NCBI GenBank assembly: GCA_964535675.1
Contig: CAZHTD010000007.1
Location: forward strand, 5,701 to 69,700
From: an uncultured Bifidobacteriaceae bacterium
GTDB taxonomy: Bacteria; Acidobacteriota; Vicinamibacteria; Vicinamibacterales; UBA2999
Length of the DNA stretch: 64,000 nt
Direction: 5' to 3'
Of this stretch, positions 4,303 to 64,000 are shown in pieces (position 1 is the stretch's first letter; each line of letters starts with the position of its first letter). The notes beneath the pieces are model-generated. The model did no database searches. It was not told the origin of the DNA and saw nothing but the letters and a program-made list of their open reading frames with translations. A program made the translations under genes and the position numbers.

Positions 4303-5313
4303 ATGATGACGACGATGCGCAAGGTCTGCGTCCTTGGGTGTGGCAGTTGGGGCACAGCTTTGGCGGTGCACCTGAAGCGCGTCGGGCATTGCACCCGGCT
4401 GTGGGGACGGGATCCGGCGCTGGTCGGCGAACTGCGTGCGGCGCGTGTGAATGCGGCCTATTTGCCAGACGTTCCCTTGCCAGCGGGGCTCGAGATCGCC
4501 GCCGACCTGCCAGCGGCGCTCGAGGGTGCCACATGCGTTGTAGCTGCCGTGCCGAGCCACGGCGTTCGCGAGGTACTGAGGCGTGCCCGGCCCCACGTGT
4601 CGGCACGGCCGACGGTCGTCAGCGCCGCTAAGGGTCTCGAGCAGGGCTCCCTCTTTCGTGTCTCCGAAATCATCGAGCAGGAATGGGGCACGGCGCCCCA
4701 GGTTGCAGTGTTGTCGGGCCCGAGCTTCGCGCGCGAGCTGGCTCGCGAGCTGCCGACGGCCGTGTCGGTGGCCTCGCGCGATTCGGAGACGGTGGCCGCG
4801 GTCCAGAAGGGCTTCCGAGCTCCGTACTTCCGCCTCTATGGCACTGGGGACGTTGTGGGTGTGGAGCTCGGCGGGGCCCTGAAGAATGTCATCGCCATCG
4901 CGGCCGGTGCGGCCGAGGGGCTGGGGCTTGGCGAGAGCGCGCGGGCGGGCCTTATCACCCGTGGCCTTGCCGAGATCACCCGGCTGGCCTGTGCGGCAGG
5001 CGCGTCGCGCGAGACCCTGGCGGGCCTGACCGGGCTCGGGGACCTCGTGCTAACCTGCACCGGGGCGCTCAGTCGCAACCGGCGCGTCGGGGTCGAGCTC
5101 GGTCGCGGGCGTTCCCTCCCCGATATTCTGGCGGGCATGCGTATGGTGGCCGAGGGCGTGCGTACGGCCGAGGCGGCGCTCGCGCTGGCTGACCGCTACG
5201 GCGTCGAACTGCCGATCACCACCCAGGTGAGGGCGCTGCTTGCCGGGCACACCGATCCGCGAACGGCGCTCGAGGAACTGATGCTCCGTCCCCAGCGCGC
5301 CGAGGTTGGGTAG
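4303..5313 (+). CDS. gpsA: NAD(P)H-dependent glycerol-3-phosphate dehydrogenase
   Basis: ORF track: KVCVLGCGSWGTALAVHL...NAAYLPDVPLP...GALKNVIAIAAG...GDLVLTCTGALSRNRRVG. Confidence 0.9.
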   Translation: MMTTMRKVCVLGCGSWGTALAVHLKRVGHCTRLWGRDPALVGELRAARVNAAYLPDVPLPAGLEIAADLPAALEGATCVVAAVPSHGVREVLRRARPHVSARPTVVSAAKGLEQGSLFRVSEIIEQEWGTAPQVAVLSGPSFARELARELPTAVSVASRDSETVAAVQKGFRAPYFRLYGTGDVVGVELGGALKNVIAIAAGAAEGLGLGESARAGLITRGLAEITRLACAAGASRETLAGLTGLGDLVLTCTGALSRNRRVGVELGRGRSLPDILAGMRMVAEGVRTAEAALALADRYGVELPITTQVRALLAGHTDPRTALEELMLRPQRAEVG

Positions 5314-5322
5314 GGCGGCCAA

Positions 5323-6240
5323 GTGGAACTGCTCGATCGACTGCGCGCGGGTCTCGACCGCACCGTCGAGCGCCTGTCAGGTCGGTTCGACGAACTGGCG
5401 CGGACGGCCGACGCCGAACGCACATGCGGTGAGGCGGTCGACGTCGACACGATCGAGGTGCTGGAGGAGTTGCTGCTCTCAGCTGACGTCGGCGTGGCCG
5501 CCACCGAGGCGGTGGTGTCGGCAATCTGCGATCGAGTCGGGCAGGGCACCAGCCTGCGCGACCTGGTGCTTGAGGAGCTGCGTGGCGTGTTTGACGTCGT
5601 GGAGCCGGGCCACGCCGTGCCTGAGGTCATCCTGATCGTCGGCGTCAACGGAACGGGTAAGACCACGACCGTCGGCAAGCTGGCCAGCCTGTTGAAGGCC
5701 AAGGGGCGCACCCCACTGGTCTGCGCCGCCGACACGTTCCGGGCCGCTGCCGTCGAGCAGCTCGCGGTCTGGGCGGGGCGCGCCGGCGTGGAGCTCGTGC
5801 AGGCTGCTGAAGGACGCGATCCCGCCTCGGTCGTCTTCGATGCCGTCACGCGGGGTGTCGATCAGGGGTGCGATCCGATCCTCGTAGACACGGCGGGCCG
5901 CCTGCACACCCGGGTGAACCTGATGCACGAGCTGAAGAAGATCCGACGCGTGGCGGGCCGCGCATTGCCCGGCGCGCCGCACGAGGTCTGGCTGGTGCTC
6001 GACGCGACCGTGGGGCAGAATGGGCTGGTGCAGGCGAAGGAGTTCATGACGGCTGCCGGCGTGACTGGCGTCGTGCTGACCAAGCTGGACGGGACGGCAA
6101 AAGGCGGCATCGCGGTCGCGATCGCCAACGACCTGCGGCTACCCATCCGCTATGTGGGCGTCGGGGAGGGTGTCGACGACCTGCTTCCGTTCTCGCCGGA
6201 TGACTATCTCGAAGCGCTGTTCCGGAAGACGACATGGTAG
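5323..6240 (+). CDS. ftsY: signal recognition particle receptor FtsY (short form)
   Basis: ORF track: ILIVGVNGTGKTTTVGKLA...VCAADTFRAAAVEQL...ILVDTAGRLH...VLTKLDGTAKGG. Confidence 0.9.
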   Translation: MELLDRLRAGLDRTVERLSGRFDELARTADAERTCGEAVDVDTIEVLEELLLSADVGVAATEAVVSAICDRVGQGTSLRDLVLEELRGVFDVVEPGHAVPEVILIVGVNGTGKTTTVGKLASLLKAKGRTPLVCAADTFRAAAVEQLAVWAGRAGVELVQAAEGRDPASVVFDAVTRGVDQGCDPILVDTAGRLHTRVNLMHELKKIRRVAGRALPGAPHEVWLVLDATVGQNGLVQAKEFMTAAGVTGVVLTKLDGTAKGGIAVAIANDLRLPIRYVGVGEGVDDLLPFSPDDYLEALFRKTTW

Positions 6241-33497: not shown

Positions 33498-33573
33498 TGG
33501 TGGACCGCATGGGGCTCGAACCCACGACCTTCGCGTTGCGAACGCGACGCTCTCCCAGCTGAGCTAGCGGCCC
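33498..33573 (-). tRNA. tRNA-Ala (anticodon CGC)
   Basis: The reverse complement GGGCCGCTAGCTCAGCTGGGAGAGCGTCGCGTTCGCAACGCGAAGGTCGTGGGTTCGAGCCCCATGCGGTCCACCA folds as a 76-nt cloverleaf. It has a 7-bp acceptor stem with the G3:U70 alanine identity pair, anticodon loop TTCGCAA, a GTTCGAG T-loop, and an encoded CCA. Confidence 0.95.
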
Positions 33574-58964: not shown

Positions 58965-59159
58965 CTGGGACGGTCACTCATCGTCATTGGACTCGTTATC
59001 GCCGCGGTAGGCGTACTTGTGTCGATCGGCATGCCCCTCGGACGGCTACCCGGCGATGTGACTATCCGGCGCGGTAACTTCACGTTCTACTTTCCGCTGG
59101 TGAGCTCGCTGCTGGCCAGCGTGGTACTGACGCTCCTGTTGATGTTCCTGAGGCGTTAG
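58965..59159 (+). CDS. DUF2905-like small membrane protein, probably initiating at CTG
   Basis: Not in the ORF track. My translation is [64 protein letters not shown] (64 codons, TAG 59157-59159). AGGAGA at 58954-58959 lies 5 nt before CTG 58965. The first canonical start (GTG) would delete the first TM segment. Confidence 0.55.
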
Positions 59160-59166
59160 ACTCGCG

Positions 59167-59724
59167 ATGGCTTCGATCAAGGCCGACCGGTGGATTCGGA
59201 AGATGGCGCTCGAGCATCGCATGATCGAGCCCTTCGAGGGCCGGCAGGTGCGGGATGGTGTGGTCTCGTACGGCCTGTCGTCCTACGGCTACGACCTTCG
59301 CGTGGCCGACGAGTTCAAGGTTTTCACCAACCTCAACAGCACAGTCGTCGATCCAAAGCGGTTCGACGCGCGCTCGTTCGTCGACGTGCGGGCCGAGGTT
59401 TGCATCATCCCGCCCAACTCGTTCGCGTTGGCGAAGACCGTCGAGTACTTCCGGATCCCGCGCGACGTCCTGACGGTGTGCGTGGGCAAGTCGACCTACG
59501 CCCGGTGCGGCCTGATCGTCAACGTCACGCCGTTCGAGCCCGAGTGGGAGGGCTACGTGACGCTGGAGATCTCCAACACCACGCCGTTGCCGGCCCGCGT
59601 CTACTCGAACGAAGGCATCGCCCAAGTGCTCTTTTTCCAGGGCGACGAGCCCTGCGAGGTTTCCTACGCCGACAAGGCCGGCAAGTACCAGAAGCAAGCA
59701 GGCCTGACGCTCCCCAAGCCCTAG
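59167..59724 (+). CDS. dcd: dCTP deaminase
   Basis: ORF track: IEPF...[11 protein letters not shown]...[18 protein letters not shown]...[31 protein letters not shown]. Confidence 0.9.
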
Positions 59725-60001
59725 GCGGCCCCCTTCGAGTTGGTGGTGCGGCGCACGGGCTCAGCGCCGGAGCCGGCCACGATCCTGCGGGTCAGGAGCG
59801 CCTCGTGCCGCGCCCCGTCGAGCAGCGCCCGTACGAGTGTGTGGGGTGTCGGCGAGCGGGGCCAGGACACCAGGATGTCCCCGAGCCCCTTTTTGCCTGT
59901 GCCGTTGCCTACGTGGCCAGGCGATCTGGGTCGAACGGGGCGTCGAGGGACAGGCACTTGGGCTCCCACTCGTCGAAGTGCCACCGGAGCGCTAGCCACT
60001 G

Positions 60002-60420
60002 TTAGAGCCGGATCGTTTGCATGAACTCCATAGAATGAGTTGCGAGAAATACGGCGACTCACGCTGTTTGTTGGATCGCCAGCGCGAGGCCGTGGGTCGG
60101 TAGCCGTTCCTGCTCGTCGAGAACCAGGAGGGGGTGCGGCCGGTGCAGCACTATGCGGCTGCAGAAGCTTCGATGGGCTGGCCTCGGTCGAGGCGCACAC
60201 TTTCCACTGCAGTATCCTGCCGATGCTCTGGGGCTGCGCATGAGTGTCGGCCTCGGCGGCGGCCTCCAGCATCGTGCGCTTGCGTCGGGTGTCGCCGACC
60301 AGGGCCTGATACAACCCCCCCCCCCCCGCGCCAGCACACGCGCGACCACACCGGGAGCCCCCGCGGCCCACAGCAGGAAAGAGACACGCGGCTTGAACGT
60401 TACTTCTTCGGCAGGCTGTT
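60002..60420 (-). pseudogene. decayed ABC-transporter ATPase-like gene fragment
   Basis: The minus strand reads ...SRIVLHRPHPLLVLDEQERLPTHGLALAIQQTA-TGA-VAVFLATHSMEFMQTIRL-TAA, which is Walker-B-like LLVLDE and H-loop-like ATH interrupted by a stop. Upstream sense lies in other frames (LYQALVGDTRRKRTMLEAAAE) and crosses the G13 run. Low-information call. Confidence 0.35.
60315..60327. repeat. homopolymeric tract C13 (G13 on the minus strand)
   Basis: Read directly from the sequence: acaaCCCCCCCCCCCCCgcg. It is the longest homopolymer I noticed in the window, about 150 nt upstream of the SET-gene promoter. Confidence 0.9.
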
Positions 60421-60475
60421 AAGCACCGAGCGCCGAGTGACTCATGGTCTATTGTGCGTGAACCGGTGATCGCTT

Positions 60476-60484
60476 TGGTATTCT
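60476..60484 (+). promoter_or_regulatory. extended -10 promoter TGgTATTCT, 7 nt upstream of GTG 60492
   Basis: cgctttGgTATTCTgtagcgcGTG. The TG lies at 60476-60477 and the hexamer at 60479-60484. I see no convincing -35. Confidence 0.4.
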
Positions 60485-60491
60485 GTAGCGC

Positions 60492-60908
60492 GTGGCGAGG
60501 GAACTCTACTTTCCGAAGATCGTCCGGAAGCGCTCGAAACTCCACGGCTGGGGCGTTTTCGTCAGGGAACCGATCAACAAGAACAAGTACATCATCGATT
60601 ACACGGGCGAACTGATCGATCACAAGGAAAGTTATAGACGCGAGACGAAGTACCTGAAGCGGGGCGAGATCTGGTGCTTCACGGTCAATCGGCGCTGGGT
60701 GCGTGACGCCCACGTAGGCGGCAACCTCGCGCGCTTCATCAACCATTCCTGTAAGCCCAACTGCTACAGTCGAATCATCGGGCGGACGATCTGGATCTGC
60801 GCGAGCCGGCACATCGAGCCGGGTGAGGAACTGACCTACGACTACTACACCGACGGGGATCGCATCATCCCGTGCCGCTGCCGGCCGGGGTGCAAGCGAA
60901 TGCTGTAG
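60492..60908 (+). CDS. SET-domain protein-lysine methyltransferase-like protein with a post-SET Cys motif
   Basis: ORF track, 138 aa: LHGWGVFVREPINKNKYIIDYTGELI...GNLARFINHSCKPNC...IEPGEELTYDYY...IPCRCRPGCKRML (GxG, NHSC, ELTYDY and CxCx4C motifs). Codons are visibly more A/T-rich than in neighbouring genes. Confidence 0.85.
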   Translation: MARELYFPKIVRKRSKLHGWGVFVREPINKNKYIIDYTGELIDHKESYRRETKYLKRGEIWCFTVNRRWVRDAHVGGNLARFINHSCKPNCYSRIIGRTIWICASRHIEPGEELTYDYYTDGDRIIPCRCRPGCKRML

Positions 60909-60927
60909 CCGGGGCCTCCTGGCCACC

Positions 60928-62406
60928 TTGTGCCGTGCGCTGACCGCGGCGGTGGCGGTGGTGGCTTTTGTTCCCGCGCAGACGGACGCGCAGGCGTTCA
61001 TCTCTGAAGGCGACCTGGTCCGTGCGAGCGAAGGCCGGACGGTGCAGGTGGGCTCGCCCGCAACGGGACGGACTCAGAGCCTGCCGCTCGAGGTTTACGT
61101 CGCGCGCGTGCTGGCCGGGGAGGGCGAGGCAAACGCGGCGATGGCTGCGCGGCAGGCGCTGGCAGTGGCCATCCGCACCTTCGCGGCTGCCAACGTGGCC
61201 CGGCATGCCGATGAGGGCTTTGAGCTCTGCGACGAGACGCACTGTCAGGTGCTAGGCGAGTCGACACCGGATTCTCGCGAGGCCGCGCTGGCGACTGCGG
61301 GTGTGGTGTTGCTCCACGATGGGGTGCCGGCCGAACTGTTCTATTCGGCCTCGTGCGGTGGGCGCACCGAGCGAGCGGCCGACGTCTGGGGCGTGGATTT
61401 CCCGTACCTGCAGTCCAGGATCGACGACGTACACGCGGACGATGAGCCGTGGACAGCCGAAATCTCGCTGAACGAGATCCAGCGCGGCCTTCGCCAGGCA
61501 GGCTTCGTGGGCGTCAGGCTACGCGGTGTGCGCGTGGTGGCGCGCAGCGTCTCTGGGCGCGTCAACCGGCTGGCCGTAGACGGCATGCGCCCGGCCGTGG
61601 TCTCGGGCGACGACTTTCGGCTGGCGGTTGGGCCGACAGTGGTGCGCAGCACCGCGTTCGAGGTAGTGAGCGGACGCGACCCGGTCCGTTTCACCGGGCA
61701 GGGCTACGGCCACGGCGTGGGGATGTGCGTCATCGGCGCCGGTCGGCGTGCCGCGCGCGGTGAAACCTACGAGGAGATCCTCGAGCAGTACTACCCGGGT
61801 CTGGTCTTAGCGCGGCATGGTGCACTGCCGATGGTGCCCGAGGCGACCGTCGCCGTGTCGGCGCCTGGGCCGGTGGTGGCGCACGTGGCGGCCCGTGGTG
61901 GGATCGACGCGGCTGAGCTTGAGGCGATGGCCGCCTTGGCGCAGGCGCGGCTCGGTGACCTGCTCGGGGTGTCGACCGGCGCGGCTGGCGGGCTCACAAT
62001 CGAGCTGCACGAGTCACTCGACAGGTTTTGGCTGGCCACCGGCCAGCCATGGTGGACGGGTGCGGTTTCCCGCGGCGCGATCATCCATCTAGCCCCGGCG
62101 GCGGCGCTTACCGAGCGGGGCGGGCTGGAGATGACAGTGCGCGTGGCGGTGGCGGCCCTGCTCCTCTCTGGCGCCGTCGCCGATCGTCCGGTGTGGATTC
62201 GCGCGGGGGCTGCCCGGCATTTCGCGCGTATGTCGCTCGGACTGCCACGAGTGACGGTGGCCGGGAGCGCGAATGATTGTCCCGCCGACGCTGAGCTCAC
62301 GCTAGCTGTTTCGCCAGCTGCCCTGCGGAGCGCTGAGGCGCGGGCCGAGGCCTGCTTCGTGAATGCTTTGGCCCGCACGAATGGTGACTGGCGCCAAGTC
62401 CGCTGA
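60928..62406 (+). CDS. SpoIID/LytB-domain protein with a C-terminal extension of about 200 aa
   Basis: ORF track (TTG start, signal peptide MCRALTAAVAVVAFVPAQTDAQA): LEVYVARVLAGEGEANAAMAARQALAVAIRTFA...LCDETHCQV...FYSASCGGRTE...GQGYGHGVGMCVIGA. It lies 19 nt after the SET gene. Confidence 0.8.
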   Translation: MCRALTAAVAVVAFVPAQTDAQAFISEGDLVRASEGRTVQVGSPATGRTQSLPLEVYVARVLAGEGEANAAMAARQALAVAIRTFAAANVARHADEGFELCDETHCQVLGESTPDSREAALATAGVVLLHDGVPAELFYSASCGGRTERAADVWGVDFPYLQSRIDDVHADDEPWTAEISLNEIQRGLRQAGFVGVRLRGVRVVARSVSGRVNRLAVDGMRPAVVSGDDFRLAVGPTVVRSTAFEVVSGRDPVRFTGQGYGHGVGMCVIGAGRRAARGETYEEILEQYYPGLVLARHGALPMVPEATVAVSAPGPVVAHVAARGGIDAAELEAMAALAQARLGDLLGVSTGAAGGLTIELHESLDRFWLATGQPWWTGAVSRGAIIHLAPAAALTERGGLEMTVRVAVAALLLSGAVADRPVWIRAGAARHFARMSLGLPRVTVAGSANDCPADAELTLAVSPAALRSAEARAEACFVNALARTNGDWRQVR

Positions 62407-62450
62407 TCCACTGGAAACAGCGCGGGGGATTCAGCCCTCGCGTCACGTCG

Positions 62451-63122
62451 TCAGCCGTACCAGCGCGCGAGGAGTGCCGGCGATACCCCTAGGCCGTACA
62501 ATGTGAGCAAGGCTAGGTTGTGGGTGCTGCGGCGCAGCCAGCCGTCGCGTTCCCACCGCCGAGCCGACGTGACGAGTGGCAATGGCGCCTCGAACACGGG
62601 GCTGTCTCTGACGAGCCGGCGCATGAACGCGACGTCCTCCATGAGCGGCAGGTTCCCAAACCCGCCGAGCCGCGCGAATACCTCGCGTCTGACGAAGAGC
62701 CCCTGATCACCGTACGCGAGCCGGAAGACACGGACGCGCCATGCCACCAGCTGCTCTAGCAGGCGCGCCTGCCACGCCGGTGAGTCGAGGGCGAAACGAA
62801 ACCAGCCGCCACCGGCAACGGCTGGTGCCGTGGCGAACACGCCCCGCCAGCCGGAGGGAAGGCGCGAGTCGGCGTGGACGAACCACAGCCAAGCGCCGGT
62901 GGCGGCGGCGGCGCCCGCGTCCAGCTGTGCGCCACGGCCGCGAGGGGCGCGTACTACGCGCACGGCGGGGTGGTGTGTGGCGAGGGCCTTGACGGCCGGG
63001 TCTGGACCACCGTCGGCGATGACCAACTCAACCGTAGGGTCGTCGGGCAACTGGCCCACCAGATCGGATGCGGCTTGGCGGTCGTCGAGTACAGGCACGA
63101 TGAGGGAGATCGTGATGGGCAC
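62451..63122 (-). CDS. family-2 glycosyltransferase-like protein
   Basis: ORF track (GTG start): ISLIVPVLDD...ELVIADGGPD...RGRGAQLDAGA...WLWFVHADSRLP...YGDQGLFVRREVF..LGGF..LPLMEDV. Confidence 0.75.
   Translation of the reverse strand: MPITISLIVPVLDDRQAASDLVGQLPDDPTVELVIADGGPDPAVKALATHHPAVRVVRAPRGRGAQLDAGAAAATGAWLWFVHADSRLPSGWRGVFATAPAVAGGGWFRFALDSPAWQARLLEQLVAWRVRVFRLAYGDQGLFVRREVFARLGGFGNLPLMEDVAFMRRLVRDSPVFEAPLPLVTSARRWERDGWLRRSTHNLALLTLYGLGVSPALLARWYG

Positions 63123-63174: not shown

Positions 63175-64000
<826 letters not shown>

Follow-up and report, generated by a model that had tools for sequence, protein, structure and literature searches.

Does a small bacterial gene whose product resembles the catalytic part of eukaryotic histone methyltransferases belong to the genome in which it lies, or was it recently brought in from elsewhere? 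The question is raised by a gene for a SET plus post-SET protein-lysine methyltransferase, here called SET, at positions 60492 to 60908 of the forward strand in a 64-kb stretch of contig CAZHTD010000007.1. This whole stretch, which we call the window, comes from an uncultured bacterium of the order Vicinamibacterales (Acidobacteriota). The order corresponds to Acidobacteria subgroup 6 and is among the most abundant in soils, and its cultured members include Luteitalea and Vicinamibacter. An earlier reading of the letters, referred to below as the sequence-only reading, had taken the gene to be a probable horizontal acquisition. The results described here lead to a different answer. Taken jointly, they make it likely that SET has long belonged to the Vicinamibacterales, in which it is passed on vertically and strongly conserved, and that it is no recent import. 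When only the identity and the evolutionary history of the gene are considered, we hold this view with high confidence.

The reading frame of SET runs from a GTG to a TAG codon and encodes 138 residues. GTG 60492 is the sole usable start, because an in-frame TAG stands two codons upstream (60486-60488) and no further start codon lies between this GTG and the conserved N-terminal residues. The Pfam SET profile (PF00856) matched the product with 83.4 bits (cut-off 22.4, E 1.7e-23) over profile positions 1-104 of 105, and it was the only profile matched when Pfam was run on the 138-residue protein; no ankyrin or other extra domain was found. The catalytic motifs named in the sequence-only reading are at their places, namely GWGVF at residues 19-23, which contains the GxG motif as G19-W-G21, RFINHSCKPNC at 81-91 and ELTYDYY at 113-119, so its description of a compact SET gene stands. 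The post-SET motif had been given as CxCx4C and has to be corrected. The sequence reads C128-R-C130-R-P-G-C134 (60873-60893, forward strand), that is, CxCx3C, one residue less than the canonical form. This spacing is invariant in an alignment of 28 orthologues, and in a comparison with PDB sequences the motif aligns with PCNCGAKKC of MLL1 with a gap of one residue. The residues C87 and C91 are candidates for the fourth ligand of a putative zinc cluster, beside C128, C130 and C134. Both belong to the residues that do not vary in the 28 orthologues: H18, G19, G21, R81, F82, N84, H85, C87, N90, C91, Y92, E112, E113, Y116, Y118, C128, C130 and C134. An AlphaFold model built on a diverse alignment of 45 sequences reached a pLDDT of 93 and a pTM of 0.86; with only the 28 close orthologues the pLDDT was 47 and the model was not usable. 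As judged from the motifs and the modelled fold, the window protein is an intact SET-domain protein-lysine methyltransferase, with its activity predicted.

The idea of a recent acquisition, that is, of a foreign insert from a eukaryote, a virus or an unrelated bacterium, draws in the first place on base composition. The G+C content of SET is 0.588 against 0.671 for the whole window, with a local minimum of 0.555, and the codons of the gene had been called A/T-richer than those around it. This is true at the nucleotide level, but not for the third codon position or for codon usage. The G+C content is 0.50 at codon position 1, 0.43 at position 2 and 0.83 at position 3; the deficit is thus confined to the first two positions. 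The G+C content of synonymous third positions (GC3s) is 0.827 in SET and 0.830 ± 0.037 in 48 window genes. An index of the codon adaptation type, derived from these same 48 genes, gave 0.683 for SET against 0.686 ± 0.050. The comparison of composition and codon adaptation that had been suggested as a way of finding a foreign signature therefore found a gene matching its neighbours in the window.

When the G+C content of SET was predicted from its amino acids at the window-average codon usage, the value was 0.595, and the observed value was 0.589. That is, the G+C content is low because the protein is rich in Lys (7.2% vs 2.0%), Ile (10.1% vs 4.1%), Tyr (6.5% vs 1.9%), Asn, Cys (5.1% vs 1.0%), Trp and Arg and poor in Ala (2.9% vs 12.7%). 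The relatives behave in the same manner. At 82 loci, whose flanks range from 0.48 to 0.74 in G+C content, the SET gene lies on average 5.6 G+C points under its flanks, and its third-position G+C (GC3) follows that of the flanking DNA (r=0.93). The composition of SET is no pointer to a foreign origin, and its codon usage is host-typical. For scans of this kind the lesson is that a dip in G+C with low values at the first two codon positions and a normal GC3 is an amino-acid effect and not a sign of horizontal transfer.

The distribution of the gene also bears on the question. When 5.8 billion clustered proteins were searched, more than 3360 homologues came back. The best 120 share 73-93% of their residues with the window protein, and most have a length of exactly 138-139 residues. 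Among their source names are 'SET domain-containing protein' and 'MAG: ... [Vicinamibacterales bacterium]', and for one protein of a neighbouring cluster NCBI gives the name 'SET domain-containing protein-lysine N-methyltransferase [Luteitalea sp.]'. With one genome per species in GTDB, at least 541 species genomes proved to contain relatives of SET. Among these, the top 80 show 64-82% identity, and nearly all are labelled Vicinamibacterales, Vicinamibacteria or Acidobacteriota. These 80 are metagenome-assembled genomes from the environment, and the habitats of the order, according to metagenomes, are soil, groundwater, lake and marine. The identical SET protein occurs on 16 metagenome contigs of one study with the gene order of the window.

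Gene order and rates of change point in the same direction as the distribution. The order of SET, a gene for a SpoIID/LytB-domain protein, a glycosyltransferase gene and msrP recurs at a locus with 86% identity and in part at one with 80% identity. Between species, the pairwise identity of SET correlates with that of msrP (r=0.69, 946 pairs; msrP lies downstream in 44 relatives) and with that of the N-terminal domain of the SpoIID protein (r=0.80, 1128 pairs). SET is the more conserved partner, since its mean pairwise identity is 71-75% against 62% and 58% for these neighbours. The ratio of nonsynonymous to synonymous substitution rates (dN/dS) of SET against six relatives was 0.13-0.22, with dS near saturation. 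By these sequence comparisons, the SET gene is under strong purifying selection.

Several contigs with SET orthologues bear record titles of unrelated taxa: Bifidobacteriaceae (L007, L013, L031, L065), Acidimicrobiia (L005, L014), Woeseiaceae (L051) and delta proteobacterium (L036). Their orthologues are 65-77% identical to the window protein, and several of these contigs share the SpoIID or glycosyltransferase neighbours with Vicinamibacterales. The taxon labels of these eight assemblies (L007, L013, L031, L065, L005, L014, L051 and L036) are probably wrong.

The DNA upstream of SET is a second feature that could be taken for the trace of an insertion. The 767 nt at 59725-60491 contain no intact gene, and a six-frame Pfam search of them gave no match. 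The sequence-only reading had noted decayed fragments and a C13 tract here, and both are present; what the fragments are could now be recognised. At 60060-60211 on the forward strand, blastn, tblastn and DNA alignment identified what is left of a dnaE2/imuC-type gene for the DNA polymerase III alpha subunit, a pseudogene relic from its 3' end. Four lesions mark it: an in-frame stop, a deletion of 12 nt, a frameshift and the mutation of its stop codon. In blastn it matches the polymerase genes of the loci L085 and L086 at their 3' ends over 85 nt with 75% identity, and L087 was matched as well. The last ~50 codons were recovered by tblastn, including RSFDGLASVEAHTFH in the window against QEFDGAASIEAHDFY in the relatives. 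Directly after it, at 60220-60300 on the forward strand, a ROK-family kinase gene has left a weak trace of its 5' end, in which LRMSVGLGGG corresponds to LRIGIDLGGT and which was seen in the DNA alignment to L086. The tblastn match of this second relic is weak (E 0.13), and its position fits the order dnaE2-ROK-SET of L085 and L086. The closest relative with context has the order imuA-imuB-dnaE2-ROK kinase-SET. There is no intact dnaE2 or ROK gene in the window.

The relics of dnaE2 and ROK, which are still in place, show that SET stands at its ancestral position. As read from these remains, it is the upstream flank that was deleted and joined to a housekeeping block. This block, sucC-sucD-ndk-DUF2905-dcd, ends with the dCTP deaminase gene dcd (59167-59724, forward strand; Pfam DCD 131 bits), which here borders the SET region, and in 80 relatives the DNA upstream of SET contains none of its five genes. 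The C13 tract lies within the relic DNA at 60315-60327 on the forward strand. Its length differs between independent assemblies of the same population: it is C13 in the window, C11 in L084 (1050-1060) and C7 in L081-L083, with flanks that are otherwise identical save for one substitution in L082. This variation is due either to neutral slippage at a hypermutable homopolymer or to an artefact of sequencing or assembly.

Recent acquisition can now be judged on all these points. The G+C difference, the 40-50% identity of the protein to eukaryotic SET1/MLL SET domains and the non-coding relic DNA with its hypervariable C tract seem at first to favour it. Nevertheless, SET does not differ from the window genes in GC3s or in the codon index, the amino acids predict the observed G+C content, and the same deficit is found in 82 relatives, in which GC3 tracks the host. 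Orthologues occur throughout the order with conserved synteny and co-divergence with the neighbours, and the upstream relics are ancestral neighbours (dnaE2 and ROK), not genes of mobile elements. No integrase, transposase, phage or defence signature was found near SET, no tRNA gene is adjacent to it, and PADLOC and PHROGs gave no match on SET, SpoIID and the glycosyltransferase. A search with Rfam (59000-63000, then the whole window) found only a tRNA-Ala at 33498-33573. The homologue on the phage-like contig L088, which is 54% identical, is a further point on the side of transfer. Thus, vertical descent is supported by the tracking of GC3, by co-divergence with the neighbours, by downstream synteny and by the relics of the ancestral upstream neighbours. 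The claim of horizontal acquisition has to be given up, since the composition is not atypical and the gene is vertically conserved in the lineage; a recent foreign insert is extremely unlikely.

L088 itself, a 34-kb Logan contig from SRR14194051, encodes a 136-residue SET homologue at 5001-5411. Its genes are tightly packed on one strand and have almost no Pfam matches, and a neighbour of the SET gene matches PHROG tail-fibre families. This suggests that phages are able to carry a SET gene of the L088 kind.

If the gene is old in the order, where did the order obtain it? The label 'eukaryote-like' given in the sequence-only reading is a fair one for the similarity of the protein, whose closest relatives in sequence and structure are SET1/MLL-type domains. 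The best PDB matches by sequence are the SET domains of MLL1 and Set1 (E ~5e-24), with 40-45% identity over the whole 138 residues. Foldseek found 377 PDB matches at E<=0.001, and the best of them for the predicted model are MLL1, MLL3, MLL4, yeast Set1 and EZH2, with TM-scores of 0.75-0.86 and 34-43% identity. The SET1/MLL (KMT2) enzymes, such as human MLL1 (2W5Y/5F5E) and yeast Set1 (6CHG), are thus the best match by both measures, with MLL1-4 and Set1 at the top. Viral SET proteins in BFVD reach at most 29% identity and a TM-score of at most 0.67, weaker than the matches to eukaryotic KMT2 proteins. The SET1/MLL domains share with the window protein the GxG motif, RFINHSCxPNC, EELTYDY, a Tyr at the Phe/Tyr-switch position and a C-terminal cysteine cluster. 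The window protein differs from them in being a bare catalytic module without N-SET, Win motif, PHD, FYRN or FYRC, and in having a shorter SET-I insert and CxCx3C instead of CxCx4C. Moreover, SET1/MLL enzymes act in eukaryotes and their WRAD partners are a feature of KMT2, whereas the host of the window gene is a bacterium, which has no nucleosomes. Among the small open reading frames (ORFs) of the 64-kb window no gene for a histone turned up, which tells little about the rest of the genome.

An ancient transfer between domains, in which a SET1/MLL-like domain passed from an early eukaryote into the ancestor of the Vicinamibacterales, or the reverse, and was inherited vertically since then, would explain this similarity. 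It agrees with the fact that every one of the top matches among solved structures is a eukaryotic KMT2 or EZH protein. When a library of 1.84 billion representatives was searched, no more than 48 clusters scored below 1e-30. Beyond these the matches, at 42-54% identity, are of two kinds. The first consists of long SET1/MLL-type proteins with 44-50% identity, one of which carries PHD, FYRN and FYRC, as the transfer would lead one to expect. The second consists of small single-domain SET proteins of 136-165 residues, presumably prokaryotic, which match at 42-54%. Because small proteins match with similar identity, the family is not clearly nested inside the eukaryotes. Furthermore, PMC3980110, which cites Alvarez-Venegas 2007 and Aravind 2011, argues that SET arose in prokaryotes and that the SET proteins of bacteria group apart from those of eukaryotes. 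We therefore regard an ancient transfer between domains as unlikely. Two further proteins among the library matches have several SET stretches: P0122, of 4152 residues, with five separate SET-like stretches (E 7.7e-61), and P0127, of 352 residues, with two SET domains.

Turning from descent to function, we propose that the product of SET is a small cytoplasmic enzyme of the SET fold that would methylate lysine in proteins with S-adenosylmethionine. A cytoplasmic location is suggested by the N-terminus, MARELYFPKIVRKRSK, in which we read no hydrophobic signal segment. The enzyme would add one or two methyl groups, since Tyr116 stands at the position of Tyr3942 of MLL1, which we take to be the Phe/Tyr-switch residue aligned with it. 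Its target may be a protein of the cell's own cytoplasm; the most plausible candidate is an abundant, basic protein that binds DNA or RNA. This proposal of an endogenous nucleoid or ribosomal target is by analogy with precedents given in the reviews PMC10117894 and PMC3980110. The small Chlamydia protein cpnSET methylates the chlamydial histone-like protein Hc1, and Go1-SET of Methanosarcina mazei methylates the endogenous DNA-binding protein MC1-alpha (PMC10117894). Both likenesses are by description. Chlamydia cpnSET/NUE are small bacterial SET proteins like ours, but they are type III-secreted and also methylate host histones, and chlamydiae are obligate intracellular bacteria. Go1-SET and vSET from Paramecium bursaria chlorella virus are single-domain SET proteins of ~120-140 residues. 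vSET is not known to have a post-SET motif and works as a dimer. The step to a nucleoid or ribosomal target is the weakest of the proposal, and we put it forward tentatively, as a possibility that may well prove wrong.

The same literature offers a different function. The characterised bacterial SET proteins in reviews all act or can act on eukaryotic histones (PMC10117894), and the catalytic domain of the window protein comes closest to the histone methyltransferases for H3K4 and H3K27. One could accordingly think of a secreted effector that methylates the histones of protist grazers, fungi or plants, like RomA/LegAS4, NUE, Burkholderia BtSET and Bacillus BaSET. The Legionella protein RomA/LegAS4, which likewise has a bacterial SET catalytic domain, is the test case here, because the window protein has a weak match to its NCBIfam family, NF043024 (AnkI/LegAS4; E 1.9e-9). 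The score of this match is 36.8 bits, however, and the cut-off is 550. RomA/LegAS4 possesses ankyrin repeats and a nuclear localization signal (NLS), is type IV-secreted and is regarded as an acquisition from protozoan hosts (PMC10117894, PMC10653858), and none of these traits applies to the window protein. Its 138 residues include no ankyrin, NLS-bearing or extra domain and no Sec/Tat-like signal. The gene is conserved across an environmental order that is not host-associated, without a patchy distribution (at least 541 species genomes), and its genomic context is one of housekeeping genes. Strong purifying selection and a conservation above that of the neighbours, 71-75% against 56-62%, are also unlike what is seen in fast-evolving effectors. 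For these reasons, a secreted effector is highly improbable.

Several points weigh against our interpretation of SET as an old gene of the order with a function in the cell. The relatives were gathered by their similarity to SET itself, and the frequency of members of the order that have no SET gene lies outside this sample. The 54%-identical homologue on L088 means that the family is not immobile. The 40-50% similarity to eukaryotic KMT2 SET domains leaves room for an ancient transfer between domains. Owing to the CxCx3C spacing, zinc binding and closure of the cofactor pocket are assumed for the SET protein. MLL-type SET domains alone are weak enzymes that need partner proteins. Finally, no paper joining SET domains with Vicinamibacter was found in the literature searched.

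The promoter of SET is of a kind that is also found in the relatives. As the sequence-only reading had said, an extended -10 element, TGGTATTCT (60476-60484, forward strand), ends 7 nt before the GTG. The pattern TGnTAYnnT has three matches on both strands of the window, and only the match at 60476 precedes an ORF. In 32 of 82 relatives this element recurs (consensus tTTGcTATCCT) with its end 7-11 nt ahead of the SET start codon, while its frequency at random positions is 0.0002, and many other relatives have TACACT, TACAAT or CATAAT at this place. The start codon, GTG in the window, is ATG in 71 of the 82. A generic sigma-70 scan of 59600-62700 found no promoter, because the extended -10 box is not accompanied by a good -35 box. 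With a -10 box only 7-11 nt from the start codon, we infer that the SET mRNA would be leaderless or have a leader of 1 nt, beginning at or next to the GTG.

At 51 of 87 loci an uncharacterised radical SAM gene is divergent from SET; it has no counterpart in the window. Taking L087 as an example (4846-5904, reverse strand), the product matches only Pfam Radical_SAM, scores under every NCBIfam cut-off and is rich in Cys at its C-terminus. At the three loci checked (L004, L006 and L008), CATAAT stands 9-10 nt before its ATG, and as read from this spacing the radical SAM gene seems to be leaderless also. The -10 boxes of SET and of the radical SAM gene lie back to back within a spacer of 40-70 nt. 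A remnant of the radical SAM gene in the upstream gap of the window was considered and rejected, because its profile scored 1.6 bits against 3.3 for the best shuffle; a short resemblance of MSHSALGA to the radical SAM N-terminus is probably due to chance.

Other parts of the gap gave the following results. A tblastx comparison of the gap with all loci produced only compositional noise. The segment 59900-60030 on the reverse strand has a coding-like periodicity of G+C over the codon positions (0.62/0.40/0.88), and it matched no family and none of the genes flanking SET in the relatives; it may be a further gene relic. An antisense ORF of 426 codons (59721-61001, reverse strand) spans SET together with the gap. 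We rejected it as a gene because its third positions are G+C-poor across the SET region and because it overlaps a gene supported by Pfam. It is a by-product of the high G+C content.

The gene downstream of SET encodes an exported SpoIID/LytB-domain protein (60928-62406, forward strand) of 492 residues from TTG 60928 or 482 residues from GTG 60958, the start in public gene calls. With TTG 60928 the gap to SET is 19 nt, and the N-terminus is MCRALTAAVAVVAFVPAQTDAQA, which is hydrophobic, signal-like and similar to the N-termini of the relatives; with GTG 60958 most of this segment is lost. The earlier description of a SpoIID/LytB gene 19 nt downstream with a signal-like N-terminus accordingly holds for the TTG start. 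The SpoIID/LytB domain (TIGR02669) occupies about residues 50-295 and scored 156.1 bits against a cut-off of 83.3, and Pfam SpoIID matches too. The sporulation equivalog TIGR02870 gave 122 bits, under its cut-off of 234.75. For the C-terminal ~190 residues (61831-62403) neither Pfam nor NCBIfam gave a match.

In 49 of 82 relatives, among them 34 of the 37 closest, the gene directly 3' of SET and on its strand encodes a SpoIID domain, and often the ORF of this gene runs over the SET stop codon or abuts it. A terminator scan gave three candidates (1.2±1.2 expected), which is within chance, and none lies between SET and SpoIID. From the 19-nt gap, the lack of a significant terminator and the overlapping or abutting ORFs of the relatives, it is probable that SET and SpoIID are co-transcribed as a two-gene operon in this clade. 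The partnership is evidently not obligatory. No SpoIID gene was found in the examined flank of 31 of the 82 loci, of which 27 have a flank long enough and 4 one too short, and the next genes at the SpoIID-less loci encode a UPF0227 esterase, a glycosyltransferase or msrP. The adjacency that had been proposed for checking is therefore not peculiar to this genome, being conserved in the 49 relatives, but it is absent in a more distant clade. Where a partner of distant-clade type is still adjacent, it is ~800 residues long (804 at L060) and has an N-terminal region like that of penicillin-binding transpeptidases.

It may be asked whether the two genes form a functional module, in which SET would act with SpoIID in wall remodelling or division, for example by methylating the SpoIID precursor or a factor of envelope biogenesis. 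The frequent adjacency, the possible translational coupling suggested by the overlapping or abutting ORFs, and the persistence of the neighbourhood with the transpeptidase-like SpoIID of the distant clade are in line with such a module. On the other hand, SpoIID is exported and SET has no export signal, the 31 relatives without SpoIID in the flank do not share the arrangement, and SET, SpoIID, the glycosyltransferase and MsrPQ behave as a conserved synteny of unrelated functions. Hence we consider a module of this sort quite unlikely. That SET and SpoIID are a true functional pair, in which lysine methylation controls a wall-remodelling or division factor in the Vicinamibacterales, seems to us slighter still in its chances. 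If it were true, the pair would be an unprecedented link between SET-type methylation and the bacterial envelope.

Beyond SpoIID, and convergent with it, lies the gene of a TIGR04283-family glycosyltransferase (62451-63122, reverse strand; 205 bits, cut-off 182). A glycosyltransferase of this family is found near SET in 23 of 80 relatives and also at L085 and L086. It is followed by msrP, the gene of the catalytic subunit of a periplasmic methionine-sulfoxide reductase (forward strand, 63175-64000, cut by the window end; NCBIfam NF003767, 385 bits). The glycosyltransferase, whose family is of the 'arsenosugar biosynthesis' type, msrP-msrQ and, at the loci of relatives, a DUF2064 gene make up a conserved block beside SET-SpoIID (L085 8049-10991).

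In conclusion, the SET protein of the window is an uncharacterised addition to the known bacterial SET-domain lysine methyltransferases. It is already so annotated in public records, and nothing about it is categorically new. Its interest lies in the organisms that carry it. Work on bacterial SET methyltransferases has dealt almost exclusively with the effectors of pathogens, and reviews raise the question of their role in free-living bacteria. The small size of the protein without visible extra domains, its conservation above that of the neighbours and its presence throughout the order point to a housekeeping role on a bacterial substrate. We therefore think that this family, with its order-wide conservation, its promoter that would give a leaderless mRNA and its clade-level operon with SpoIID, is a reasonable model for SET enzymes in non-pathogens.

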